Positions 26,606-61,643 are shown, numbered from the whole stretch's first letter. The stretch: 63,190 nucleotides of DNA, filler included, from Stramenopiles sp. TOSAG23-2 (GCA_900128395.1; 8 parts of 8 records of this genome joined end to end with filler, not necessarily neighbours in it); one strand, 5' to 3'. Program-made: numbers and translations. The notes: generated from the letters alone by a model not told the origin.

Positions 26606-26705
26606 NNNNNNNNNNNNNNNNNNNNNNNNNNNNNNNNNNNNNNNNNNNNTTAATTAATTAANNNNNNNNNNNNNNNNNNNNNNNNNNNNNNNNNNNNNNN
26701 NNNNN
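26606..26705. other. Artificial contig linker (44 N + TTAATTAATTAA + 44 N)
   Basis: Six-frame stop 12-mer embedded in N runs. Confidence 0.97.
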
Positions 26706-37645: not shown

Positions 37646-40600
37646 ATGGCACATAATGATTTAAGTTGGACAGTTTCTGACGATGAAGTTTCAAATGATG
37701 GAGATGATGAAAACAATAACATTGATATTATTATTGATAAAGATTATAATAATAACAATATATATATTGGTGAAGAAGAAATGGTCAAGTCGAAATCACC
37801 TTTACGAGTTGATATTCAACCAGGCAATACGGTAGATAGCAAACCTAGGTTAACGCTGCCTCATTCGACAGTACCGGGTGGTGCTGTACCATCGTCTTCA
37901 CCTTTTCCATCATCACAAACAACTGCACTACCTATCGTAGGGCCACCGCCACCACCACCAGTAGCAGCGTATTTTAGTGGAAATTTTCAACAGCAGCAGC
38001 ACCACCACATGATGATGATGCCACCACCGCTGCCACCACCAACATATTATCACCAGACACTTACGCCAACGATGCAACAACAATATTTTAACCATTTACA
38101 CAATAATCAAGCTGCTGGAAGTATGAATGCGGGTGCGCAACAACCATACCCTTCGCCGCACCAGCAGCAGCATCCAACAACAACAACGTTACATCATAGC
38201 ATAGCTGCTGATTCACCTATATCTGAGTCTGGTGAAAATGAACTTGAAGCTAGTACAAGATATGTTAGTAAATGGAGTCCAAGCTTATTTAACACTAGTA
38301 TATCCAGTGATCGAAAAGCAACAACTTTAATATCCCCTTTACCAATGCAATACCAAGACAATAATAATAACAAGAAAAAGAAGGAGACTGTTGGCAGCAA
38401 TTCGAAAGAATCATCAGTCATTTTTCTACCACAACAAACAATAGGTGATGCAGATGCCATATCTTCCATGGAATCATATTATCAAGCAGAAATTGAACGT
38501 TTGAAATCTCAATTGGAAACCAAGTCGAGAAGCAGCAATTTGAAAGAATCGGCAAATAGAGTTATCCTGGATAATTCCATCGACAGTGAAGATGTTTTAG
38601 AAACTAGCATTCCCATGGCGGCGGCGGCGGATCATCAGATCAATCAACTAGAATCTAAAATACGCTTTTTACAAGAAGAACAAGAAAATAAATATATATT
38701 ATATGAGAAAGAAAAAAATAATTTACAACATTTATTAGACGAGTCACGCCAAACTATTGCAAATTTAAAAGCAGCTGCTGCCGAAGACACAGAAGAATCT
38801 TCTATAAAAAACAGAAACGTTATGGAAAAGCTAGAAGATACATTTCGTAAACGTGAAGAAAGTTTAGAAAGTTCAATGAAAGATCAAGGAATTGCATTGC
38901 AAAAAGCACTTGCAAATGAAGTACGTTCAATTATTTATTTATATTTTTTTGCCTTTATTCTTCTTTTTACCATCACCAAAAACAAAAACTAACAAACATT
39001 TTCAATTATACATTTTTCTATATTTTATTTATGACTTCCTACCTTTTCTTCTTTGCGTCATATTTATACACTTGAAAATAGGCAACTGTACAAGCAGCAT
39101 TTAATTCATTGAAATTAGAAAAAGATAAATTAGAAAACGAAGTCAACAAATGGAGCAGTTTAACAAATCGTTTTCGCATGGAACGTGATGATTTAGCTGA
39201 GCAAAATACTGAATTGAAACGGCAATTGAATTTAGATTCAACAAATTTATCTCAAACAGAATATTTAAATCAAAAATTACAAAATGAAATAACAAATTAC
39301 AAGTCTATACTAGAGCAAAACGAACGTATTTTACGAACAGCAATGGACAAAGAAGAAACCTTAAGAGGTACTGTTTACAAGCTGCAAGAGCAAAATAAAG
39401 AATTAGAAACGGTAATATTGAATTTGCGTCGTAATTATGATATGAACATACGCAATCAAGAAATGAATGATAATTACAGCTTTAATCATTCATCTCAAAT
39501 GGATTATCAACTGCAACACCACCACCAGCGGCAGCTGTACGATGCAAAAAAACAGCTCCAACAATCCACACAACCACCACGGCAGCAAGCGAACCATCTA
39601 TCTTTATCCCCATCATCAATTACCAATCGCAAAGATTTAAAGCAACGATCTACAACAAATTTACTATATCATCATGAACATCAAGCATCGACACGCAAAA
39701 ATTATCAAAATGATAACGAGATTGGAAATGACAACAATGGTAGGAGAAACAATAACGATATGCGAAATGCATATGATCGTAGAAACAATATCGGTGGTGG
39801 TGTTATGGGGCGTGAATTTAGTGAAAACAACCGATACAATGCAATATCACCAAGTGGAAATTCCATGGTGAGTGTATTAGGGAAAAAATCCCTTCGTGAC
39901 TCTTCGCCACAACAATTTAGAAATCGTGGAAAAGTATCTGCGAAAGTAGCGACTGGTGGTAAACGAACAAATGATAGAATTTTTCCATCCTCATTAATTA
40001 ATAATATTTCTGCCACTAATACTATTAGTAATAAAAATAAAAATATCAATGGTACTGCTACTGATAATAAAGCAATAAAGCAAAACAAGTCAATTATAGA
40101 ATCAAGTATTTTCCCAATTGGTAGCTATCATATTGAAGATAGTAATACTGATTTAAACCATCAAAATAAAAACGAAGAGGCACATAGGAATGCAACAGAT
40201 GCTACAACTACCACTACATTAACACTAAAAAGTGAGAAAGAACTTATTGAAGAAGAAGCGCACGGTGCTGCCGTAAAAAATAGCAAAGATAACACTGCCA
40301 ACGTGAACGTGAATATACAACCTTCATCTTCTATAATCTCATTTCAAGAAGCTATGGAAAATGCTAGAAGAAAAAAAGCTGCTATTGCTAGTGCTGCTAT
40401 ACCTAGCGGCGAACGATCTTCTTCCTCATTTTCAATATCAACACCACGGAAGCAAGCAGCTACATTCGCAGCAAAACAAAATCGTCCAAATTTTAAAATC
40501 GAAGATCCTAAATCTTCAAGAGTAAAACCAATTGCATTGTTAACAGAAGAAGACAAACGCCAAGTGCGTTTACAACGCGTAAAACGGGCAGAGGCGGCAC

Positions 40601-40842
40601 CATTCGCTACGGAACATTCGTTAAATTTGCAAAAAAAACAAATGTCTGAAATTGAAAATCAATTAATAAAATTAGGTCTTGAAAAGACAATGTTGGAAAC
40701 AGAATTGATGAAAAATGAAAGTCTAGCTAGAAAGCGGATGGATGCTAGACATAAACAAAAAAGATTAGAGAATCGACTTGGAGAAATTGTAATGTTATCA
40801 AGTAAATTGAGACAGAAATTGAAACATGTTGAAGGTCGTTAG
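37646..40842 (+). CDS. Pro-rich/coiled-coil protein; exons 37646-38920 and 39082-40842
   Basis: Phase-0 intron 38921-39081 (gtacgt...actaac...aatag) joins ALANE to ATVQAAFNSLKLE in frame; C-terminal coiled coil. Confidence 0.75.
38921..39081 (+). other. Ordinary AT-rich spliceosomal intron (161 nt), unrelated to the Introner-like family
   Basis: GT-AG ends and in-frame joining of two ORFs; no similarity to the ABCC introns beyond splice signals. Confidence 0.75.
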
Positions 40843-41930
40843 TAAATGTATACGAGTGTGTGAAAACCTGGTACTCTCTATATCATAGAAAGGAGATAGA
40901 TTGCCGGATAGCAAGGAATGCTATTAGTTGAAACTGGTGCCTAACTTCTAAAATTAATTATATTTTTGTTGTACAGGTGTGTATTGTATGCATAAAGCCT
41001 ATGCATTCGTATAATATATCATAATAACTAGATATAGTAGTGTCTCTCCTTGAACTTTCAAGAAGTAACTCGCACCACAAACCACAAAATAAAATCAATC
41101 TCAATCTAAATATTTAAAAAATACAGTAACTTAATCTTTTGTTTATTAAAATATATTATGCATATCATAAAATCTTAAGGGCTTGAAATAATGCAACAAA
41201 AAATCGGCATTTTGACATTTCGCAGCTTTCTGGCTTTCCAAATAGTTTTTTTTTGATTGCTAAAAGGCGACACTATCGATAATAGTACTGTAGTAACTGT
41301 ACTGTATGTAGATAGCCACCCCACCCACTATACACTATGTACACTACAAGGAAGGCTAATCAGTATTCCTGGTATTCTGGTATTCTGGTATTCTCGTTTC
41401 ATTGCGTAGCTACACACTATCTAATAGCTACGTACCATGAATCAATCAAAAGAAAATGTTCATAATGCTATTTCTATATAAAATAATGGAGAACTTTCCT
41501 CATGCAATGGTATGGTCATGCTATTTGGTTCTCTTTCAAAACTACTAAAACCAACAATTTATTTAATACGTTGCACTTTCTTCTACTTGATTTCTTAAAT
41601 TAGTATTGTTAATGTGATTCCATGTCCTAATAAGATGTTCTTAGTTGTTAGTTCCAGTATCATGCATATGTTTGTACTACAGGCAAACGCTCGATTAAAT
41701 AACATGCACATACTATTATAGAAACAACAAACTAAAATATATATATGTATGACAAGTAGAAACAAACTTAATAATATGTTGAAACAATATACATATATCA
41801 AAGAAAAGACAAAACAATAGAAACAATCATTACAAAGTAAGTCAACAGAAACATTAACAATAACCACGCAGAATAAGCAGCATATATAGATATATATACA
41901 TATACAAATACATATATTATTCAAGTAATC

Positions 41931-42290
41931 ATGTCATTTAAACAAAAACATGCGTTTGAAAAACGTAAAGATGAAGCACACCGTATATTACAAAAATACC
42001 CAGAAAGAATACCAGTAATTTGTGAAAAGGATCCAAGAAGCCGTGATATACCAGATATCGATCGAAAAAAATACCTTGTACCAGCGGATTTGTCCATTGC
42101 TAACTTTATGTATGTAATCCGTAAGCGAATAAAGATTTCTCCTGAGAAATCTATTTATCTTTTTGTTGACAATACAGTTATGCCAGCAACTGCACAGTTG
42201 CTATCTGCATTATATGAAGAACATAAAGACCAAGATGGTTTCTTGTATATTACTTATGCCGGAGAGAGCACTTTTGGTGGGATGAATTAA
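41931..42290 (+). CDS. ATG8: ATG8/GABARAP autophagy protein
   Basis: [44 protein letters not shown] with the conserved C-terminal Gly. Confidence 0.98.
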
Positions 42291-43157
42291 AAAAGGATTA
42301 TAAATCAGTAGAAAAATTGTAGTTGATTTTTCTAGGGAACCTTGACTGTAAAATATACAAAGCGGAAAATTAACGAAAGCAAACAAAGGCTTGTTGTACA
42401 TTGGTACCTATGATATGAATGAAAAAATGCTTGCATGAAAAAATGTAAACAAGAAAGAAAAATATTAATATTATATAAATGAAAAAAATTTGGGTTTACC
42501 TCATTAGGGAGATGTTGTACAATCATACTTTTATATAATATGTGTGTGTAGAAATGGAATTTAGTTTTATATATTTAATATCATTATATAATACCATATA
42601 TGGTATCATATTCATATGATATATATATAGCATGATGAGATAGATATTATTGCCTCGGTTATCATATATAATGATATGATATGATATGATATGTCATACA
42701 TCATTCTTTTGAAGAAGTATCATTATATTTATATTTTAATATATAAATAAGGATAACATATATCATAATTCCTACTCATGACAATTCCTACTACGAACTC
42801 GTATATATAATGCATATATATGCATATGACATATCATATGATATGAACGCATCGTAGGAATTATCATGTGTGTGAGTAAAGTGCTATCATAAAAATTGGC
42901 CATCAAAAATTAAATTATATAATAATGACCCGGTTTATCTGACCCGAAGCACCTAATGGACAAAAAAACATATTATATAGGTAAATATTTCTAGTATACA
43001 ACTACTCCATACTTAGACCAGAGATTTCAGGTTTGATAGTAAAATATGTGTAATTTGTACTCATTAGTATACTTAAATTATTAATCAACTGGAAGTCTCT
43101 CTCAAGAAAAACCGGGTCATATATGATATAAATAAAAAAATATAAAAATAATATAAT

Positions 43158-43293
43158 TTTTACTCAACGATAATTCCTACTCTCCAAAAGAATAAAAATG
43201 TAACTCAATAATCTGTCTGCTCACACTATGCATAGTGTTAGTGTGTCAATACTCTCCATATAGAAGAGAAATACCAATGGAGGTAAATAGATG
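43158..43293 (-). repeat. Repeat family A copy (diverged); further fragments at about 33167-33315 and 42636-42868
   Basis: gataattcctactctccaaaagaata and ataccaatggaggtaaatagat match the copies at 33781 and 52488-52640. Confidence 0.7.
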
Positions 43294-43357
43294 GGTATAT
43301 ATATTTATATCAACGTACATTATATACGCGAATATATAAATATGAATATCATGTCCT

Positions 43358-44539
43358 TTAAACTTGTAAAACTCTTGCTAATTTTTGTATACGGTTTAAC
43401 AAGGCATCGCCATCTTTTAAAGTATTTTGATATTGTGAATTTTTCGCATCTGGTCTATTTGTTTCAATAATTCCAGCTACTTTATCAATTTTCGCCTCTA
43501 ATCTACCCATGGTAATAAAACGAAATAATTCTTGATCGATGAAACTTACTTTGACACCAAACATAGCTGCCATGCTTTCCAATGTTACACTTTTATAACT
43601 TGCTAAGAATTGCTTATATGCAGCAACACGCATTTCTTTAATATAGTAATGCGTATGCTCAGCAAAGTAGCGGCTCCGTTGAATATGGTCGTGTACTGCA
43701 GTAAATGAGCGTATATAACCTTTGTAATCACAATCATACATTGCATTTAAAAATACACCTATTTCTGGCAATTCACGGATAACTGTTAATACGTCAGGGG
43801 AGTCAATGATTTTTTTTTTCAAATCTCCACGTTTTAATGTAAGCATACCTAAAAGGACAGCATACGACACGAAGGTGTTATAAGTCATGACTTCATAGCA
43901 TGTAAACGTAGCAATGCTACTCATTAAATTTTCTGACGCACCCTCAAAATCACGCATGATCATTTGGTACGAAGCTTCATATATTTTCAAACGATTTCTA
44001 CGTTCCCAATCACCACCCTTTTCAATTAACGTTTTTGCTTTTGCAATATTTTGTTTTAAAATATCTTTATCCATATGAAAAAGTCCAACTCGTATATGCT
44101 TCAAAACGGCATCAATTTTAGTACCAGTCGACATACTTTCCACTGGAATTTCATCAATTGCCTCCACGGATTTTGATTTATCGCCTATTAAAAAATAAAA
44201 ATCTGCCTTTGCAGTTCTTGCATCTAGAATTTCAACTTCACCTTCAGATTCTTTTGCCTTTTCAAGTTGTTCAGCTAATTCCTTTAACTTTTCCTCGTTA
44301 GCTTTTTTCATAGTATTCAAAAATGTTTGATCTACGTTCCATCCAAGTTTTGAACAGCATTCTTCATAAAAAACACTCATATTATTTTCCTTGATGCCAT
44401 CCATCAATTCTCGCTTCAACTTTATTTTTTCATCTGGTGGCACGATGCTATCTGGACGCTGCAATAGGAACCGCTTATCGGCCAACGCCATATGCCTACC
44501 AGCTTTTAAATCCTCTTCTGCAGCTGCAACTAAAGACAT
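43358..44539 (-). CDS. RPN7: 26S proteasome lid subunit RPN7/PSMD6
   Basis: EKGGDWERRNRLKIY, SIATFT, EMRVAAYKQFLASYKSVTL, IDKVAGIIETNRPD.KN..YQ...K.GD.LLNRIQKL. Confidence 0.97.
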   Translation of the reverse strand: MSLVAAAEEDLKAGRHMALADKRFLLQRPDSIVPPDEKIKLKRELMDGIKENNMSVFYEECCSKLGWNVDQTFLNTMKKANEEKLKELAEQLEKAKESEGEVEILDARTAKADFYFLIGDKSKSVEAIDEIPVESMSTGTKIDAVLKHIRVGLFHMDKDILKQNIAKAKTLIEKGGDWERRNRLKIYEASYQMIMRDFEGASENLMSSIATFTCYEVMTYNTFVSYAVLLGMLTLKRGDLKKKIIDSPDVLTVIRELPEIGVFLNAMYDCDYKGYIRSFTAVHDHIQRSRYFAEHTHYYIKEMRVAAYKQFLASYKSVTLESMAAMFGVKVSFIDQELFRFITMGRLEAKIDKVAGIIETNRPDAKNSQYQNTLKDGDALLNRIQKLARVLQV

Positions 44540-45202
44540 GTTTTGAAAAAAGTAGATATAATTGTTATAAGTATATACGTATACGATGTATATTACTACA
44601 ACGCGATCTCAATTTACCTGTATATATTTGTCACTATATATAATTGCTATTTAGATATCTTTTTTTTTTCTCCTCTTGATGTACGCTAATATAATATAAT
44701 ATATTTCTATTCTTATGTTACGTTTCAACATATATTTTAAATATAATTAATTAATGTATACATATATATATTTAACAAAAAAATAAATACCATTCTTATT
44801 AGTGTTATTATTTCGTCTTCATCTCACGTCGTCGTCGATCATTGATTCAATATTTTATGTGATTCTAGAATACTTGGTATGAAGAATGATAAGAAATTCA
44901 TTATTGAAATTTATGGTGCTATGGTGCTATGCTGCTATTCTAGAATTTTTTTTTATTTGAATTTCGTAGCGGCAACAGAGAGAATTCTCTCTGGTTACAA
45001 TATAGATAGTAGAATAGTGTAAAGCACTAAAGTCTATATTTAGGATTTAAGGACGAGGACAGGGTTTTCGTAGATACAGATGTACGTAAAAGCCCTATAT
45101 ACGCTATATTCTATATTAAGGTAAAAGTCAAAAGTCATGGTATTTTTTTTTTATAACAACATGCGGCGCTTTGACTGCTAGCTGGCTAGCCCAGGCTAGC
45201 TA

Positions 45203-46915
45203 TTAGCTCGCCATGAAAAAAACACCGACTAAAAAAAATGTACCAAATATATCACCAAGCGCAGTTAACCACGGCGTTGCATAATTATCTGGATCTATTT
45301 CACAGCGAAACAATATACGAGTGATTTTTGTTATAAATAATAACACCAAAACAATTTGCAATGTACTTGCCAATATATATAAACCAATGATTAGCCAATT
45401 TATTTTAACATGGCCAAGATTCAAAAAATAAACAACCATTAAAAAAATACCTTGTAATGGCAAATTAGCAAACAGCAAGGATAGACAAATTTTTAACTCC
45501 TCTTCCGTTTTACCAGTATGCAGTGACGAACACAGACGACTTGCATATACAGCACCAAGGTTTCCACCGATGCCATTGATATATGGTATTAAAACCGCAA
45601 TGCCTTTATAACGCATTACATTTTGTTCTAATATTACACCGGCTATTTGGCTCAAGGCTAAGCTGGATACTAGTGGCAACCAGCCGGTTTTCAAAACAGG
45701 ACGACAAAGTTCTTCTCGTTTTGCAACATTCCAAAACAAAGGCAATAAAATCAAATGAACAAATATGATCAGTGGCGACCAGTAAATCCCTAAAATGTCA
45801 CTTTTATCTAGTGATAGATCATAAAAAAATGTTCCAAAAAGTGCTAAAAGTCCAGTAGTACATGCATCACCAAAGCTACTAACAATTGGCGTGACAATAT
45901 TATCAGGGTCAATATCATATGCCACAGAACAGGTAATTAAATAAGCAGTCAATGACCCTAAGACAAATGCAGCACTTGACATCGTTATTAAAATAGATGC
46001 CAACATGACAAGATTTGGTAAAAATAAAAAGACACCATTGGATATACTACTTATAATAATGGAACCAACGGCGGTTATCAAGGCACATATGATTGCTTGT
46101 ACTTGAACAAGTGCTAAACTTGAAATTATAATTTCACGCGTCCGTTGTTTATCATCCATGTAACCTGAATGTGCAGCTGTTGCAAGCCGCGATGCAAGCG
46201 TCATATCTAAACTTCCTTTCAAACCCAACAACATCGGTATGGCCATGAAATACGCCGTGTTTGACTCAAACACGGGCCAATGTTGCGTAATATCTAGAAC
46301 ATACCCAGATAAAAATAACCCGAACGCTGCTATAACTAAGGCAGGTAACACTTGAGAGCCATCTTTAATTAAATTAAACTTATTCACGTTACTTGGTATT
46401 TCCATGGATTGAAACACTGGAACACTTTTTTTCTTCCCGCGTCTGCCTTTTTTTCCATTTCTTTGACTCGACACTTTCTTGCTCATTTTTAACATACTCT
46501 GTGGACGCAAAGACCCATCAGATTCACCTGGTTTTTCCCACGGTGGTGGTAAATCCAATGCGTGTGTAAGACTTTCTTTATGGTGGTTATGAGCATGAGT
46601 ATTATTATTATTTCTATTTTCAATATTATCATTCGCAACTTGAGTCATCTCTACATCAACACTGACAGTTTCTGGACCTCTCCTTATTTTTATTTTTTTG
46701 AGATTATTGTTGCTTTCATCATTCCAAGCAAATTTAACTTCATGTTGAATTTGTTTTCCATCTGTTTTCTTATTTTTCAAATCTTCAGTTTTATTATCAT
46801 TTTCCTCTCCCGACTCATCGCCCATCTGGTCATCTTCATTATTATCATACTCAACATCATCCACTTTCCTATATGGACTTTGCACCGATCCGAACGATTT
46901 TAATATTTTGAACAT
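45203..46915 (-). CDS. SLC41/MgtE-type divalent cation transporter
   Basis: PMLLGLKGSLDMTLASRL, DPDNIVTPIVSSFGD, GIGGNLGAVYASR, DPDNYATPWLTALGD (two MgtE repeats). Confidence 0.92.
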   Translation of the reverse strand: MFKILKSFGSVQSPYRKVDDVEYDNNEDDQMGDESGEENDNKTEDLKNKKTDGKQIQHEVKFAWNDESNNNLKKIKIRRGPETVSVDVEMTQVANDNIENRNNNNTHAHNHHKESLTHALDLPPPWEKPGESDGSLRPQSMLKMSKKVSSQRNGKKGRRGKKKSVPVFQSMEIPSNVNKFNLIKDGSQVLPALVIAAFGLFLSGYVLDITQHWPVFESNTAYFMAIPMLLGLKGSLDMTLASRLATAAHSGYMDDKQRTREIIISSLALVQVQAIICALITAVGSIIISSISNGVFLFLPNLVMLASILITMSSAAFVLGSLTAYLITCSVAYDIDPDNIVTPIVSSFGDACTTGLLALFGTFFYDLSLDKSDILGIYWSPLIIFVHLILLPLFWNVAKREELCRPVLKTGWLPLVSSLALSQIAGVILEQNVMRYKGIAVLIPYINGIGGNLGAVYASRLCSSLHTGKTEEELKICLSLLFANLPLQGIFLMVVYFLNLGHVKINWLIIGLYILASTLQIVLVLLFITKITRILFRCEIDPDNYATPWLTALGDIFGTFFLVGVFFMAS

Positions 46916-47252
46916 ATTTGTATTGGACCTTGTATCGCATGGATTAATATGAGTAATAACAATTGAAATACTATTAATAAGTATATATATATCACATCAA
47001 CTATTAACTTTTTATTTATTTTTTAAATAATAATAATATTTTTTTTTTTATTTTAATAAAAAACTTTACCCCAGGTCCCAGGTAAACCTTTTTTTATATA
47101 TAGTACCAGGTACTACAGGTAATATAATAATAATAAGTGCATACCAGGCATACTAAAATACCAGCGCACCAGCCCGCCAGGTAAAATTTTTCAAAAAAAA
47201 AAGGTTTTTTTTAAGGTACTACGGTGGTGTGATGTTTTGAACCCTAGGGGCG

Positions 47253-47450
47253 TACTTGTTTGTAGTCTCCGTGGCGGCGTTTTCTGAAATCGCAATGGAA
47301 AACGCATCGTTAGCAGGTGTTTAGAAGGTAATCCGTTTTCCATCACGAAAGTCATTTCGGCGGCTGGACCACCAATATGACCCAGAATAGTCGATCCTTA
47401 AAATCGACGGCTAGCGATCCAAGAGAGATGTCGAAAGACTACAACAAGTA
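47253..47450 (+). ncRNA. Predicted multi-stem structured RNA or ssDNA (left end of YR island)
   Basis: Closing stem 47253-47268/47436-47450 (one bulge); stems 47277-47284/47298-47305 and 47306-47314/47410-47418 (one G.U); hairpins 47346-47359 and 47390-47408. Folded by eye; expression unknown. Confidence 0.5.
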
Positions 47451-47483
47451 TAGAAACTACTAGAATTTATTTTTTATTGTACA

Positions 47484-47634
47484 ACCATACCAAGAGACTA
47501 TGACCGTCATAGGGTCCCAGTGCTGTGTGTATGCTTACAGACAAATCTCATGCAAACCCACCACCATACCAAGAGACTATGACCGTCATAGGGTCCCGGT
47601 GCTGTGTGTATGGACTCCGACAAATCTCATGCAA
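47484..47634. repeat. Two 72-nt direct repeats (period 79) with internal palindrome CTATGAC-C-GTCATAG
   Basis: accataccaagagactatgaccgtcatagggtccc[a/g]gtgctgtgtgtatg...gacaaatctcatgcaa at 47484 and 47563. Confidence 0.92.
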
Positions 47635-47676
47635 TTTGAAAATAGCTTATAAAATTATTTTATAATTTTTATTTTA

Positions 47677-47910
47677 TTATTTACCCACCACACCTCGAGG
47701 GTTTTCCACTGTTTGCTTTGGCACCATACCGGGTTTGAGTCTTACAATCCACTCCATAACATTCACATTATCACGCTCAGCCAAAGCTGCCCCCTGTGTT
47801 GGATTCAAACCTTTTTTATTGGTTCTATTAATATCCGCTTGTGCACCGTGATTATAAAGATATTTCATAATATCCAAATAACCTCCCACCGCCGCGTTTT
47901 GTAAACATGT
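47677..47910 (-). pseudogene. 5'-truncated ankyrin-repeat fragment
   Basis: Open frame TCLQNAAVGGYLDIMKYLYNHGAQADINRTNKKGLNP... fits the ankyrin consensus; directly preceded by an in-frame TAA, with no ATG ahead of the repeat. Confidence 0.65.
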
Positions 47911-47940
47911 TTAGCATGTGAATAGTATTAAAATGTTAAG

Positions 47941-48082
47941 TGTAAAGCTTTTTAAAAAGATTATAAAAACATATAAACAAATTATATTTATACAATTGGA
48001 AATATCCCAGAAACCTTTACACCTTTACAACAATGCTGTCGCATGCTAATCGAGCTTTACATACCTTTACAAAACCTTTACA
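47941..48082. repeat. Cluster of A[C/G]CTTTACA 9-mers next to an AT-rich tract
   Basis: Copies at 48013, 48021, 48053, 48063 and 48074; inverted tgtaaagct at 47941. Confidence 0.75.
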
Positions 48083-48172
48083 CCCAAACCCGTCATAGGG
48101 ATCCTAAACCGCGGTTTGGAGTACATAAAAATGGTAATCTCTCCGAGTACATAGAACTCTCATTCCTTGTAC

Positions 48173-48973
48173 TCAATCCAAATATTGCGCAATATCGGTA
48201 CCATCACTAAAGATATAGGTGTTGGTCGTTGTGATCGAAACATGACCCAAACGATCCCTACACGCGGCGAGAGGCGCCCCTGCTGCAAGTAAATGCGAGC
48301 AATGAGCGTGTCGCATCCAATGGCACGATACTTGTGTGTACCCAACGCGATTACAGATTCGTTTCATCATTTTGTGGATCCCTGACTTGGATATGGGACC
48401 GCCAAACCGTCCTTTGAAAATAAACCCGTTTGGGATGGCATCCAATAGTGGTTTGATATATATCGATTTGGACTTGGATAACGGCACGGTTCGCGTTTTA
48501 TTACCTTTTCCCGTTACTGTAAAGTGAAAACAACCTTGTTTATCAACAATATCGCGTTTTTTTAGCAGACGAACCTCGTCTTTGCGGACCCCTAGATAAT
48601 ACAATAATGTAACAAGTACACGCTCGCTGTTTGTACTTGCAGCTCGTATCAATTCTTGAACACCTTCCCTATTCATTTCGCGTTTTACCTTAATTGGTGT
48701 TTTCTTGGGCACCTGTAATACTCTACCTACATTTTCTTGAATATACCCATTGTTAAACATGAATTTGAACAGTGATTTCACACACGCAATCCTCCTACGC
48801 GCGCCTGGAGCGTGTTTGGTATCCTTTTGGTAGGTTTTAAGCTGTTGAAGGGTCATCCCTCGTATATCGTTGACCCCCATATACTGCTGAAAGGAGCGGA
48901 TATCGCAACGATAGCAATACCTTGTCTCCGCGGAACCAAATTGGTTGATAAATTCGTTCAAAATGCTCTGCAT
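48173..48973 (-). CDS. XerC/D-like tyrosine recombinase/integrase (266 aa)
   Basis: Core-binding-like N-terminus (SAETRYCY..DI..F, VKSLFKFM) and complete catalytic set: GVRKDE (R), GKGNK (K), HWMRH (H-x-x-R), LGH (H), TTNTY (Y). Intronless. Confidence 0.93.
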   Translation of the reverse strand: MQSILNEFINQFGSAETRYCYRCDIRSFQQYMGVNDIRGMTLQQLKTYQKDTKHAPGARRRIACVKSLFKFMFNNGYIQENVGRVLQVPKKTPIKVKREMNREGVQELIRAASTNSERVLVTLLYYLGVRKDEVRLLKKRDIVDKQGCFHFTVTGKGNKTRTVPLSKSKSIYIKPLLDAIPNGFIFKGRFGGPISKSGIHKMMKRICNRVGYTQVSCHWMRHAHCSHLLAAGAPLAACRDRLGHVSITTTNTYIFSDGTDIAQYLD

Positions 48974-49148
48974 AAATCGTAAAAACTATGATTTCGCGTT
49001 CTTTGGGTTTTCTACAGCGTTTGACCAAGTTACAGCGTCCAAAGGCTTCTAGATAAAGAATATTGTTGTTTTCGTAAGTTTAAAAATGGACATCCACTTG
49101 TATATGTTAGCATATGTGTGTATATCTGCGTGATGGGAGCGTGGTGGA

Positions 49149-49359
49149 CCTATCAAAATACATTTAAGGGGTTTGACCCGTAACATTTTATTCCCAGGCG
49201 TGTGAGCATCCTAAACGGTTTGGGGTGCTGTGACCGTGCTAGAGATCCGCTACTCACACTGTCACGATCCTTTAGTTTATTTGATAGGCGAGGTTTTCAC
49301 ACTTGCACGTCTCATGTGCCAGTGTGTGTAAAATGGCCGGCCCATTTCTACTTATAGAA
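49149..49359 (+). ncRNA. Predicted nested rod-like structured RNA or ssDNA plus terminal hairpins (right end of YR island)
   Basis: Nested stems 49149-49160/49278-49288, 49165-49172/49267-49274 (two G.U), 49174-49177/49261-49264, 49200-49206/49253-49259; inner hairpin catcctaaa-cgg-tttggggtg; hairpins at 49298-49326 and 49331-49347. Confidence 0.5.
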
Positions 49360-49766
49360 CTTACAGTGTAGACAAAGTACAAGATTGTAGCTAACTGGAT
49401 GTATTATACTTAGATCTACTGTATGCTGTATGTATATCGGCACCTGTATATAGGACAGACAGTACAGACAGAGTATACGTATACTTTATGCCATATATAT
49501 TTTATAATATGTGGACATAGAGAGATACTATATATATATATATAATTGAAATCATGTCATAGATGTAATAAATGCATAAATGATAAGCCTTTTTACAAGG
49601 TAATAAAAACGATTTGGTTAATCAATTATAATAAATAACAAACATTCAATGCACCGTTCAACAACATATATCACTAAAACTGCTTTAGAACACCATATAT
49701 TTTGTATGATACGATAAAATGAAATTCATAAATGTATGGGCAATATTATTAATATCAATAGCAATA

Positions 49767-50177
49767 TCAGTCAATGCTGATATAACAAAATTTGTCGCGC
49801 CTTGTAATGCTTTCTTCGGCAGACAATTTTGATAAATGATGTAAATGCCGACGATGTCGATGAAGGTTTTGTCTTTTCTTTCTTTTCATTTCTTTCCTCC
49901 AGAAGTAATAATCACTATCCTTGTTTTGATGATGGTGATCATGCAATTCATATGTATCGGAAATTTCTGAATCGTCATCACTATCATCTTCAACAATATT
50001 ATGCAGAGATGATGTCTTTCTTACAATTGCTATTGCTCTGAGTAAATATTCTGTACAACTAGTTGGAAAAGAATGATGATATTCTGGAATAAAATTAGGT
50101 AGAGGTGCTGGTGATAATTCTAATGATTCAAACAAAATATTTGATACTAAAGAGAATGTTTCCTTTATGAATAGCAA
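49767..50177 (-). CDS. Hypothetical small protein or gene fragment
   Basis: 136-codon frame with host-like low-complexity runs, but no ATG near its 5' end and no recognisable domain. Confidence 0.25.
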   Translation of the reverse strand: MLFIKETFSLVSNILFESLELSPAPLPNFIPEYHHSFPTSCTEYLLRAIAIVRKTSSLHNIVEDDSDDDSEISDTYELHDHHHQNKDSDYYFWRKEMKRKKRQNLHRHRRHLHHLSKLSAEESITRRDKFCYISID

Positions 50178-50706: not shown

Positions 50707-52242
50707 ATGTCGAACGTGGACCCGTTAACATTGTTTCAAAATAGTAATAATATTGAAGGATTACAATCTAGAAATAAAAATAATTTCAAGAGTCAAAAAC
50801 GGCCAAGGGGGGAATATGATCAAGATAAAAATATTGATGTAGAGAAAGAATCTAATAAAAAAATGAGAAAAGAATGGAAAAAGAAAAGAAAAAAGTTAGA
50901 AAAAAAGTTGAAAAAACGTGCTAAGAAAAAAGCTAAAAAAGAGAAAAAGAAGGCTAAGAAAAAGGCAAAAAAATTGAAAAAGAAACGTCGCAGTAAAACC
51001 AATTCCTCCTCCTCTTCTTCCTCGTCCTCATCTGAACCCGATGATGGCATATCCGATGAAGAAGAAGAAATTTATGTAGGGAAATGGGATGAAAATGTAT
51101 TTAATGTGACTGTTTTGGATATATTGAAAAAGAATATCAGAATGCATGGCGCACTGCAACAAGTTTTTGGTGCATTGGATGCTGGACAAGGCATTGTGCT
51201 TGGTGGAATCGAAAATGCGGATGTCAAAAATACACTGCAACATGTTTTCAATGTCTTACCAATTGTAAAACATCTTAATGGTGAACAATCTTTGTATAGA
51301 AAATCAGACATTAATTTGAAGTCATTGCTCCAGAAACTATATGAACAAATTCAAAAAATGAAAGCAGATAATCTTATGCAAAATTATAATGTCGATACGA
51401 AGAATCAAACAATAAAGAAGAATAATTATAATAATAACAATAATAATAATACATCCTCATCGACTATAATCTCTAGTAATAATGACGTAGATCAAATAAA
51501 TCAAGAAATAAGCAGTAGCGATGATGATGATTTTGGGCCACAAATCGCAAATTCATCGAAGGTGCGAGGGGCACATCGTGATTTCACCGAGGATGAAATA
51601 ATGCGTACTAAAAAATATTCTAAATCAAAAAGTCAATCAAACACATCAAACACTGTTGGAAAGTCCAAACGTGGAGATTGGATGACACAATTACCGGAAG
51701 GTCGAAACATTTTCACTCAAATGCAAGCAAGTACTGGTCCGAGAAAATTTTTGAAGACAAGCGTTGATCGGAAATTAGCATCGGATGGTGGCATAAATTT
51801 ATGGACTGCGACACCAGAGCAGCGATTAAAGATACAAAGAGATAAAGCAAATAAAAAGTTATTAGGCTATGACAGTAATTTCAATACTACAAATAACAAC
51901 AAACAAGTAACCAGTGGAGGAATTGTTGGAAAAATAAATTTACCACAATCAACGAATAGTCGTAAAAATATTGTTATACGACAACCTGTACAAAATAATA
52001 ATGATGGAACTCCAACATTATCATTATTAGAGGATCATCGTTTGAGGAACCAAAGTAAAAACAACAAGAACGGGTATGATGGAAAAAAAGGCGATGATAC
52101 TAGAAAGCGTAATGAACAGGAACAGAATGGTTCTTGGAGGGAAAGGGAATTACTTCAAGGAGCAGTTGATAAATCGCATTTAAAAAGTATTATAAGTGGA
52201 GCAAAAAATATGACTAATCGATTTTCATCTGGGAAAATGTAA
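50707..52242 (+). CDS. GPALPP1/DUF3752-like protein
   Basis: DDDDFGP, RGDWMTQLP, LWTATPEQR, SLLEDH, WRERELL and terminal NRFSSG match the DUF3752 pattern; Lys-rich N-terminus. Confidence 0.75.
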   Translation: MSNVDPLTLFQNSNNIEGLQSRNKNNFKSQKRPRGEYDQDKNIDVEKESNKKMRKEWKKKRKKLEKKLKKRAKKKAKKEKKKAKKKAKKLKKKRRSKTNSSSSSSSSSSEPDDGISDEEEEIYVGKWDENVFNVTVLDILKKNIRMHGALQQVFGALDAGQGIVLGGIENADVKNTLQHVFNVLPIVKHLNGEQSLYRKSDINLKSLLQKLYEQIQKMKADNLMQNYNVDTKNQTIKKNNYNNNNNNNTSSSTIISSNNDVDQINQEISSSDDDDFGPQIANSSKVRGAHRDFTEDEIMRTKKYSKSKSQSNTSNTVGKSKRGDWMTQLPEGRNIFTQMQASTGPRKFLKTSVDRKLASDGGINLWTATPEQRLKIQRDKANKKLLGYDSNFNTTNNNKQVTSGGIVGKINLPQSTNSRKNIVIRQPVQNNNDGTPTLSLLEDHRLRNQSKNNKNGYDGKKGDDTRKRNEQEQNGSWRERELLQGAVDKSHLKSIISGAKNMTNRFSSGKM

Positions 52243-53296: not shown

Positions 53297-53396
53297 NNNN
53301 NNNNNNNNNNNNNNNNNNNNNNNNNNNNNNNNNNNNNNNNTTAATTAATTAANNNNNNNNNNNNNNNNNNNNNNNNNNNNNNNNNNNNNNNNNNNN
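53297..53396. other. Artificial contig linker; identical linkers at 54948-55047, 56599-56698, 58248-58347, 59896-59995, 61544-61643
   Basis: Same N44-TTAATTAATTAA-N44 layout; the contigs that follow are 1551, 1551, 1549, 1548, 1548 and 1547 nt, i.e. length-sorted. Confidence 0.97.
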
Positions 53397-53451: not shown

Positions 53452-54947
53452 ATGAATAATAATAATAATAATACATTTAATAACGGAACGGTATCCCCTT
53501 CATCAGTTGGTATAAATTCTTTCATTGATACTTTTTGTGCCGTGAATCAATATTCATCGCTAGGAAACGAAGAATCACGTGGTATTTCATTTTCATTGGA
53601 AAAATTTACGCCATGTTTTAATGATTTGATTGTTATTGGAGGTAGTGATATCTTTGTTATTATTTTTGGCATTGTTCGTTTGTATTATTTATATTCAAAC
53701 AAATTTAAAAAATATAAAATGAAACAGCCAACAAAAACTTTCCAAATTTTAAAAATTGTTTTATCGTTTATCGCAGCAATGGTATCATTAGTGCAATTGA
53801 GTGGTCGTATTGGTGCTACAGAGCAGACGCTTGCGCCATATGAATACGTTTCATTTGCACTTAGTTTATTTGCATTTCTATTTTTAGGTATTTTATATTT
53901 AATTGAATTGCAACAAATTGAATTAAGGGGTGCATGGATGTTGAATTTTGTTGTACTCCTTGAACTAGCAGGCCACACCGTGAAGTTGTATTATTTAATA
54001 GAATTGCTGGAAAAGAAAAGTAATAATACATCTGCTACTATTTATTTTACTGGTGTATTTATCTTGAAATACATTTGCGTTGCTGTTTTAGGATTACTTG
54101 CATTGTGTTACATTCCATCTGATAAACAATTTACAGAAATTTTCAATTTGGATGGAAATCGTTTAACCGAGGCAAATAATGAGAATGATTTACTTGTTGA
54201 TGATGAAGGTTTTACGAAGCATGTATGTCCAGAACAAAATGCAAATATTTGTTCCCGTTTGACATTTAAATGGATGGGCCCATTAATGAAACTTGGGCAT
54301 GAAAGGCCTTTAGAAAAAGAAGATGTATGGATGCTACCACAAAAACAATCTGCGCAAGTATTACAAGATGCATTTTTAAGAAATTGGAAATATGAGCAAC
54401 AATTTACAGAAAAACCATCATTATTCCGTGCATTGCGAAAAACATATATTAAACCATTTATTGTAGCTGGTTTTTTTAAGATTTTTAATGATGCCTCTCA
54501 ATTTGTTGGGCCATTGTTTATCGGATTGTTCATACAATTTATTGCAAGTCAAAGTACAGATACACCTATGCCCCAATCATTGGGTTATGTTTATTCTTTT
54601 TGTATTTTTGGTGGCCAATTAATTGGTGCATTAGCGGAAAATCAATATTTTCAAACAATTATGACAACTGGTCTCAATGTAAGATCGGTTTTGATATCCT
54701 CTATATTTAAAATTGCTTTGACATTAAGTGCAAAAGGTCGACATGGTAGAAGCGCTGGAAAAATGGTAAATTTAATGAGTAGCGATGCGGAAGGGTTGCA
54801 ATCCGCTGTTCAAGGGTTATGGAATGCATGGGTACGTAAAAGTCTATTTCCCTAAACCTAAAAAAAAGTATCCTCTCTAACACACATCACCTCCACAGTC
54901 TGCGCCTATACGTATCATTGTAGCACTTATATTATTATATAGCCAAC
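53452..54947 (+). CDS. Second ABCC/MRP transporter, long form with TMD0; 3'-partial; intron 54832-54898
   Basis: TPCFND, CPEQNANICSRLTFKWMGPLMKLG.ERPL.KEDVW, FKIFNDASQFVGP, ENQYFQ, GKMVNLMSSDAE; after splicing WSAPIRIIVALILLYSQ. Confidence 0.92.
54832..54898 (+). mobile_element. Spliceosomal intron, Introner-like family copy 3 (67 nt, phase 0)
   Basis: gtacgtaaaagtctatttccctaaacctaa...tatcctctctaacacacatcacctccacag; removal restores the conserved W-SAP motif. Confidence 0.8.
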
Positions 54948-61543: not shown

Positions 61544-61643
61544 NNNNNNNNNNNNNNNNNNNNNNNNNNNNNNNNNNNNNNNNNNNNTTAATTAATTAAN
61601 NNNNNNNNNNNNNNNNNNNNNNNNNNNNNNNNNNNNNNNNNNN

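Follow-up and report, generated by a model that had tools for sequence, protein, structure and literature searches.

The stretch of DNA analyzed here (the window) comprises 63,190 nucleotides (nt), filler included, from Stramenopiles sp. TOSAG23-2 (GCA_900128395.1). A GC (guanine-plus-cytosine)-richer island of ∼2.1 kb, whose limits were drawn from composition alone, lies at positions 47215 to 49360 and contains an intact, intronless gene for a tyrosine recombinase (YR) of 266 amino acids (aa) at 48173 to 48973 on the minus strand. In 400-nt windows, the GC content was 0.41 to 0.46 at 47200 to 47800 and 48000 to 49400, compared to 0.27 to 0.29 immediately outside. Two AT-rich sub-blocks within the island had a GC content of 0.33 to 0.34 in windows of the same size, and the GC profile of the AT-rich spacers resembled that of host intergenic DNA. 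Pfam matches identified the left neighbor of the island as an MgtE/SLC41-like transporter gene (45203 to 46915, minus strand) and the right neighbor as a DUF3752 gene (50707 to 52242, plus strand); the gap of ∼3.8 kb between these two genes is the widest in the window between open reading frames (ORFs) of at least 150 aa. The sequence from 26706 to 53296 is free of any N, and the island and both of its junctions with host DNA are inside this 26.6-kb piece. An initial annotation of this DNA had placed a GC-richer island between host genes on a single contig, and the GC profile, the Pfam assignments of the flanks and the N-free piece bore this out.

The recombinase gene was identified from its ORF and by Pfam. 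Residues 101 to 254 of the protein matched PF00589 (Phage_integrase) with a score of 92.9 bits against a cut-off of 27.1 (E = 2.6e-26), and the N terminus gave a weak match to the SAM-like family PF02899 (18.1 bits, below the cut-off of 22.3); no other Pfam family was detected in the protein at E ≤ 0.01. The catalytic residues were complete (R130, K156/K159 within GKGNK, H218, R221, H244 and Y253) and were invariant or at least 90% conserved among 14 family sequences that are 30 to 87% identical to the window protein. As these residues have been kept across a family of such limited identity, the enzyme looks functional, judging from its sequence. The description of the gene in the initial annotation, as the only intact gene of the island and an intronless 266-aa recombinase with all catalytic residues, was thereby upheld by the ORF, the PF00589 score and the 14-sequence alignment.

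Alignment of the family profile placed the catalytic residues of the recombinase in line with the corresponding motifs of XerD, the residue numbers used for this correspondence being those that we take to be catalytic in XerD. The profile aligned almost end to end with the solved XerD (residues 13 to 284, E = 5e-43) and aligned also with XerA, an archaeal XerC-like protein, IntI4 and XerH. An AlphaFold model built with the 14 family sequences had a mean predicted local distance difference test score (pLDDT) of 87.6, with a helical N-domain modelled at residues 2 to 85 (pLDDT of 85 to 95). The protein starts at this helical domain, leaving no room for an arm-binding domain, and only 13 residues follow the catalytic Tyr. 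The best solved folds for the model were XerA and XerH (∼E 1e-10), IntI, Tn1549 Int, lambda Int, XerD and Cre. Matches in BFVD were nearly all phage integrases, with two entomopoxvirus YRs at ranks 11 and 47, and the protein matched the phrog_1 integrase at 2.5e-39. The recombinase is a simple two-domain enzyme of the Xer/phage-integrase class, consisting of an N-terminal core-binding domain and a catalytic domain.

Orthology with XerC, XerD or XerA was considered and rejected. The NCBIfam scores were below the equivalog cut-offs (120 versus 335.15 bits for XerC, 115.4 versus 329.6 bits for XerD and 114.9 versus 220 bits for XerA), and the protein branched apart from named XerC and XerD sequences. 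The codon use of the gene is foreign to the host. The GC content at third codon positions (GC3) was 0.44, compared to 0.17 to 0.29 in 22 host ORFs, and an index resembling the codon adaptation index was 0.515, compared to 0.655 to 0.753 in the same ORFs.

No other gene was found when the six frames of 47000 to 49700 were read, and there was no reverse transcriptase (RT), RNase H, methyltransferase, capsid, packaging, polymerase or primase; the six-frame reading and Pfam thus agreed with the earlier observation that RT, capsid and replication partner genes were absent. The YR is the only working gene of the island. A truncated ankyrin-repeat fragment was present at 47677 to 47910 on the minus strand (70 aa from a GTG start, 77 aa from stop to stop). 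This fragment matched Ank_5, Ank_4 and Ank at E values of 7e-4 to 4e-3, all under the Pfam cut-offs, opens in the middle of a repeat and has a GC3 of 0.35; it is probably a piece of a pseudogene. No homologue of the fragment was found among proteins of similar length, to which the search was confined. The island DNA had no match among plasmid and phage records, a scan for sigma-70 promoters and terminators gave results no richer than those for shuffles, and no tRNA was found.

The remainder of the island had been described in the initial annotation as organized, with folds and palindromes, a description that survived in part. A tandem duplication with a 79-nt unit was detected at 47481 to 47634 on the plus strand (75 nt aligned, 91% identity), each copy of which holds the palindrome CTATGAC-C-GTCATAG. 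Apart from this palindrome and an AT-rich cluster at 47647 to 47672, perfect palindromes of at least 7 nt were not enriched. The motif CCGTCATAGGG occurred three times in the window, each time within the island. An imperfect inverted repeat sits ∼110 nt 3′ of the YR gene, internal to the island, with arms of ∼52 nt (47900 to 47951 and 48011 to 48061) and an AT-rich spacer of 59 nt. The arms matched at 39 of 49 aligned bases, giving a score of 26 compared to 16.1 ± 2.6 (maximum, 28) in 500 shuffles. A cluster of CTTTACA and CCTTTACA at 48014 to 48086 occupied the right arm and the sequence just beyond; five same-strand copies of CTTTACA were present in 48015 to 48082, compared to eight on both strands of the rest of the window, and this clustering is explained by the inverted repeat at 47900 to 48061. 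The duplication and the inverted repeat with its motif cluster are, therefore, the organized features that stood.

The folds fared less well. The region of the inverted repeat (47880 to 48130) gave z scores of −5.87 for plus-strand RNA, −4.13 for DNA and −2.87 for minus-strand RNA and was the strongest fold of the island scan (z of −6.25, compared to a background minimum of −4.27). GC-rich non-coding blocks are present on the left (47215 to 47465; 45% GC) and on the right (48974 to 49360; 42% GC), the latter being upstream of the YR gene and presumably holding its promoter and 5′ leader. For the left block, a multi-stem fold was predicted on the minus strand only (z of −3.92, compared to −1.09 on the plus strand). 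This fold was not above background, because host intergenic sequence reaches similar values: in the host background of 40000 to 47000, 6 of 114 window-strands had a z of −3.2 or lower, with a minimum of −4.27. In the right block, the fold of 49090 to 49370 (z of −0.45 and −0.58) was no better than that of shuffles. Rfam gave nothing at gathering scores across the window and, at E ≤ 5, two weak matches at chance level (ES003 and SCARNA7); no match was obtained for the left block at E ≤ 5. The host intergenic windows that folded well were 42750 to 42999 on the minus strand and 44875 to 45124 on both strands (z of −4.27, −4.15 and −3.24); such sequences could represent RNA genes not yet described or DNA rich in hairpins.

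Relatives of the recombinase were sought in protein collections. A word-indexed search gave 18 proteins at E ≤ 1e-3 among 342 candidates. Five were close, namely P0001 (87% identity, 266 aa), P0002 (61%, 270 aa), P0003 and P0004 (∼61%, partial) and P0005 (46%, partial), and the others were bacterial Xer-like proteins with identities of 23 to 39%. When 1.84 billion representatives were searched exhaustively with a profile, 201 matches were obtained at E ≤ 1e-30, with a step in the scores: P0003 and P0177 to P0186 scored 407 to 162 bits (203 to 272 aa), after which a plateau was reached near 150 bits. The close relatives form identity tiers of 87 to 91%, 61% and 39 to 46%, with proteins of ∼260 to 270 aa. 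They make up a small family, occurring in relatives of this protist as well as in environmental assemblies. Family proteins stem from ENA, Logan, JGI, "eukprot," one "merc" record and two marine-survey records, the last two carrying size-fraction labels of 0.22 to 3 and 0.22 to 0.45 μm; the contigs of family members are mostly ∼1 to 3 kb but extend up to 39.5, 80.6 and 383 kb. A wider set (P0177 to P0190) consists of tyrosine recombinases of ∼251 to 276 aa that are 30 to 39% identical to the window YR, and the 90% clusters of this set hold up to 61 variants each, mainly on ∼1-kb contigs. Longer forms (P0339, P0341 and P0343) read through a conserved low-complexity upstream leader. A strand-turn segment at residues 143 to 150, before FTVTGKGNK, was observed in two alternative versions (e.g., KLQGGSL and VDKQGCF), both of which recur across the 87 to 91% and 61% subfamilies, which points to a variable contact surface or to sequence exchange among copies.

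A phylogeny had been proposed in the initial annotation; one with bacterial Xer and phage sequences was constructed as a quick maximum-likelihood tree of 92 rows. These were the window YR, 16 family rows, 55 representatives of 240 to 330 aa (P0187 to P0262), 8 proteins from the word search and 12 ORFs from phage, IMG/VR and GTDB loci; the family label was fixed beforehand by score and length, with the partial proteins P0178, P0003 and P0004 excluded. The 17 family rows formed one side of a branch with a Shimodaira-Hasegawa-like approximate likelihood ratio test (SH-aLRT) value of 85, the neighbor being P0192 (94), and the named XerC and XerD rows were across a branch with an SH-aLRT value of 98. 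On this tree, the lineage of the YR family is distinct, on its own branch apart from XerC and XerD. Matches to the YR were found in 1,043 phage records, with a best identity of 32.9%, and the best match in IMG/VR (33%) was in a tailed phage with terminase and portal genes. Five IMG/VR scans (with A1, P0179, P0177, A3 and a 22-nt motif) gave distant phage integrases or nothing, and none was closer than 33 to 37%. A GTDB genome scan gave 13 loci with identities of 25 to 30%, mostly alphaproteobacterial; two metagenome scans yielded no close relative, the window YR finding nothing and P0002 a single locus at 26% identity, and only generic integrase clusters were found in the ESM Atlas.

Comparison of family members provided signs of mobility. 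The 90% cluster nearest to the window YR contained 10 different proteins, of which the 6 full-length members (266 aa) were 92 to 98% identical among themselves and 87 to 91% identical to the window YR, and at least 10 intact 270-aa variants were present in the 61%-identity subfamily. Copies that are not intact were also detected: P0020, on a 383-kb contig, is an internal piece of 102 aa, P0178 is without the segment bearing the catalytic Arg, and P0027, on a 39.5-kb contig, lacks residues 1 to 31 and has a frameshift close to its end. The tail that P0027 gains by read-through aligned in another frame to 48194 to 48081 (50% over 40 aa, E = 2e-4). As this tail matches the 3′ flank of the window gene, the conserved unit includes it as far as the border of the inverted repeat. 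This flank (48081 to 48172, minus strand), conserved in the second, frameshifted copy, holds CCGTCATAGGG and the palindrome AAACCGCGGTTT. The "eukprot" gene model P0029 (746 aa) combines a YR from the 61% subfamily with an ATG22-like transporter unrelated to MgtE, indicating a different neighbor gene in another protist data set. The exact window YR was absent from a collection of 15 billion proteins, whereas the exact protein of the RPN7 gene (43358 to 44539), which is also left of the island and ∼3.6 kb from the YR, was found on 58 contigs. This difference is consistent with a gene that is silent or with a copy that is rare or specific to a strain.

We propose that the island is foreign DNA inserted in the divergent MgtE-DUF3752 intergenic region and represents a Crypton-like integrative element of very small size with a YR alone, or the recent remnant of one, a proposal to which we give roughly an even chance. 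In its favor are the intact enzyme, the foreign composition, a locus that has the look of an insertion (host genes on either side in an N-free piece and the widest gap of its kind in the window), the distinct lineage of the family and the inverted repeat 3′ of the gene. Mobility of the family is supported indirectly by the foreign codon use, by the presence of intact variants together with decayed copies and by the different neighbor gene. To this extent the suggestion in the initial annotation of a minimal YR transposon gained ground; the accompanying suggestion of a viral satellite did not, as no link to a virus was found and the closest viral relatives were integrases of tailed phages with identities of at most 33%. 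In the proposed mechanism, akin to that of Cryptons or bacterial integrative elements, the recombinase would bind inverted-repeat sites on the element, which would be excised as a double-stranded circle and reinserted through conservative site-specific recombination; no polymerase, RT or capsid would be needed. The palindrome and the inverted-repeat region adjoining the YR gene are candidate sites. We infer mobility, the circle form, the choice of recombination motifs and the ends of the element. A wider claim, which we advance tentatively and consider somewhat doubtful, is that the island is a copy of a new superfamily of minimal (∼1- to 2-kb) YR-only DNA transposons that have a compact phage/Xer-type recombinase, are still active in the nuclei of several protist lineages, are widespread in marine assemblies and have their site in the inverted-repeat/palindrome region 3′ of the gene.

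A number of observations weigh against insertion of a mobile element. Self-comparison of the 63-kb window revealed no second copy of the island, no terminal direct or inverted repeats or flanking repeat pairs of the island were above the level of shuffles, and no target duplication or empty site was seen. A motif pair, ATCCTAAAC..GGTTTGG, flanks the YR gene at 48101 to 48122 and 49208 to 49226 and was considered as a pair of att-like sites; it was dropped, the score being 24 compared to 19.2 ± 2.6 in shuffles. For the single-copy host gene RPN7, too, 29 cluster members were found, with divergence steps of 99.5 to 100, 92, 90 and 73%. As these steps roughly parallel those of the YR (87 to 91 and 61%), vertical descent would also fit, and instead of paralogues the YR variants may be strain- or species-level alleles.

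The tyrosine-recombinase elements known from eukaryotes comprise Cryptons, DIRS-like retroelements, Starships and integrating viruses. The island resembles Cryptons in its eukaryotic nuclear setting, in having a YR as the sole enzyme, in being without an RT or long terminal repeats and in having boundaries that a single copy hardly reveals; the protein variants hint at several copies. It differs in that its YR is a compact, bacterial-type, two-domain protein of 266 aa with a strong PF00589 match and similarity across the length of XerD, and in the absence of GCR1_C (CryptonF), a DUF3504-like domain (CryptonA line) and a C-terminal extension (compare CryptonS), a separation drawn from published description and from domains. 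The Xer proteins (XerC, XerD, XerA and XerH) and small phage integrases share the two-domain architecture, length and catalytic residues of the island YR. Differences from the Xer proteins are NCBIfam scores of a third to half of the equivalog cut-offs and a branch separate from XerC and XerD; in addition, the island YR, unlike Xer and phage proteins, is in a eukaryotic chromosome between eukaryotic genes, and its identity to phage and prokaryotic sequences is at most 33%. DIRS, Ngaro and VIPER elements are likewise eukaryotic elements encoding a YR, and DIRS-like elements also carry inverted or complementary repeats. No RT, RNase H or methyltransferase ORF is present in or beside the island, however, and ∼2.1 kb is far too small for such an element. 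Polinton-like viruses, virophages and giant viruses have in common with the island a YR on DNA that integrates into protist genomes; the island differs in being without capsid or packaging genes and in having nothing closer than 33 to 37% in IMG/VR. Starships (Captain YR, DUF3435, large cargo) differ in that the island YR has no DUF3435 match and the island is ∼2.1 kb. Cryptons, according to their published description, are without long terminal repeats, have boundaries that are hard to see in a single copy and are the subject of a model of movement by excision of a circle; the same description gives several copies with shared, defined termini and terminal direct repeats of 4 to 6 bp (PMC3212892). 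In the parts of the sources that a literature search covered, Xer-type YR elements were not described from the nuclei of protists.

Other explanations of the island were weighed against the same evidence. The YR could be a host-resident gene, derived from a phage or bacterial integrase that was acquired once and is now inherited vertically, possibly after domestication, with the non-coding blocks as its regulatory DNA. This explanation, which we regard as rather unlikely, accounts for the family being a single branch whose divergence steps roughly parallel those of RPN7, for intact ORFs with catalytic residues conserved across identities of 30 to 90% and for the absence of terminal repeats and of a second copy in the window. 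As the prokaryotic and phage relatives are merely 25 to 33% identical, any such transfer would be old, and codon use should since have drifted toward that of the host; the GC3 of the YR gene is nevertheless outside the host range. Nor would a resident gene be expected to have decayed copies on long contigs (P0020, P0027 and P0178) beside intact ones, a related copy adjoining a different host gene or an exact protein that is unseen when that of a neighboring host gene is on 58 contigs. Alternatively, something larger, such as a polinton-like virus, virophage, giant-virus fragment or plasmid, could once have integrated here, with deletions leaving the integrase, the ankyrin fragment and non-coding DNA as the island. 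The truncated ankyrin ORF and repeat debris beside the YR are consistent with this, as are the position of the YR, ∼390 nt from the right compositional edge, integrases usually being at one end of such elements, and the origin of some wider-family members in the 0.22- to 0.45- and 0.22- to 3-μm fractions, on contigs of up to 80.6 kb. Against this stand the six frames without capsid, packaging, polymerase or primase genes, the lack of phage or plasmid DNA matches and the five IMG/VR scans, with nothing closer than 33 to 37% and a tailed phage as the best match. The related proteins are, moreover, mostly on contigs of ∼1 to 3 kb with a steady length of 259 to 272 aa, and the ankyrin fragment, having no relative of similar length, shows no sign of traveling with the YR. 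A larger element is considered fairly improbable.

The initial annotation had further suggested that the ends of the island fold into structured RNA or single-stranded DNA that serves as the substrate of the recombinase. The strong fold at 47880 to 48130 (z of −5.9 for RNA and −4.1 for DNA) and the better folding of the left block on the gene strand (z of −3.9) are in its favor. The strong fold is, however, internal, near the 3′ end of the gene, rather than terminal; the left fold is inside the host background, the right block is no better than shuffles, there are no Rfam matches, and no ends could be defined. Enzymes of the YR fold act on double-stranded inverted-repeat core sites, integron integrases being a known exception, and the structural matches of the YR model include both duplex-site enzymes and an integron integrase (IntI). 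The suggestion was consequently not sustained, and folded ends are judged very unlikely. An assembly chimera or contaminant, in which bacterial or phage DNA was misjoined into a protist contig, appears extremely improbable. The window does consist of contigs joined by N/TTAATTAATTAA linkers, as in a fragmentary assembly, and the composition of the island is unlike that of the host. As host genes flank the island on either side within the N-free 26.6-kb piece, a chimera would require two false joins that arose independently; furthermore, another protist data set contains gene models in which related YRs are fused to genes of eukaryotes, and the AT-rich spacers of the island resemble host intergenic DNA.

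If the family truly resides in protist nuclei, it would represent a new and unusually simple type of eukaryotic mobile DNA with a bacterial-style recombinase of ∼260 aa and would document the transfer of a whole recombination system from phages to eukaryotes. Compact single-protein recombinases working in a eukaryotic nucleus would be of interest as tools for genome engineering. If the gene is instead fixed in the host, a bacterial-type recombinase has been kept intact in a eukaryote for some cellular task.

The window is a chain of contigs with seven linkers, each composed of 44 N, TTAATTAATTAA and 44 N, which are located at 26606 to 26705, at 53297 to 53396 and then at intervals of ∼1,650 nt up to 61544 to 61643; a separate gap of 196 N is present at 2402 to 2597. 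The first two pieces are of almost the same length (26,605 and 26,591 nt). The pieces between the last six linkers are 1,548 to 1,551 nt long and contain unrelated gene fragments, among them the N terminus of an ABC transporter cut at a linker, a C2/PH protein, DUF7899 and a WW/IQ protein. As the pieces after 53297 are short and unrelated, the window ends on the right in a string of short contigs rather than in a stretch of chromosome. The ABC transporter gene has an apparent spliceosomal intron of ∼75 nt at 54838 to 54910 (GTACGT...CACAG), indicating that the host has introns, although most ORFs of the window are unbroken. For RPN7, the nearest named relatives (∼47 to 50% identity) were from oomycetes, plants and animals. 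Between the island and the DUF3752 gene is an ORF of 136 aa with many His, Asp and Ser residues (49767 to 50177, minus strand), which could be a small gene of the host. Upstream of the MgtE gene and just outside the island, a cluster of CCAGGT and ACCAGG(T/C) motifs was observed between A/T runs at 47068 to 47185, with four copies of CCAGGT in ∼110 nt; the cluster may belong to the junction or represent a promoter element of the host.

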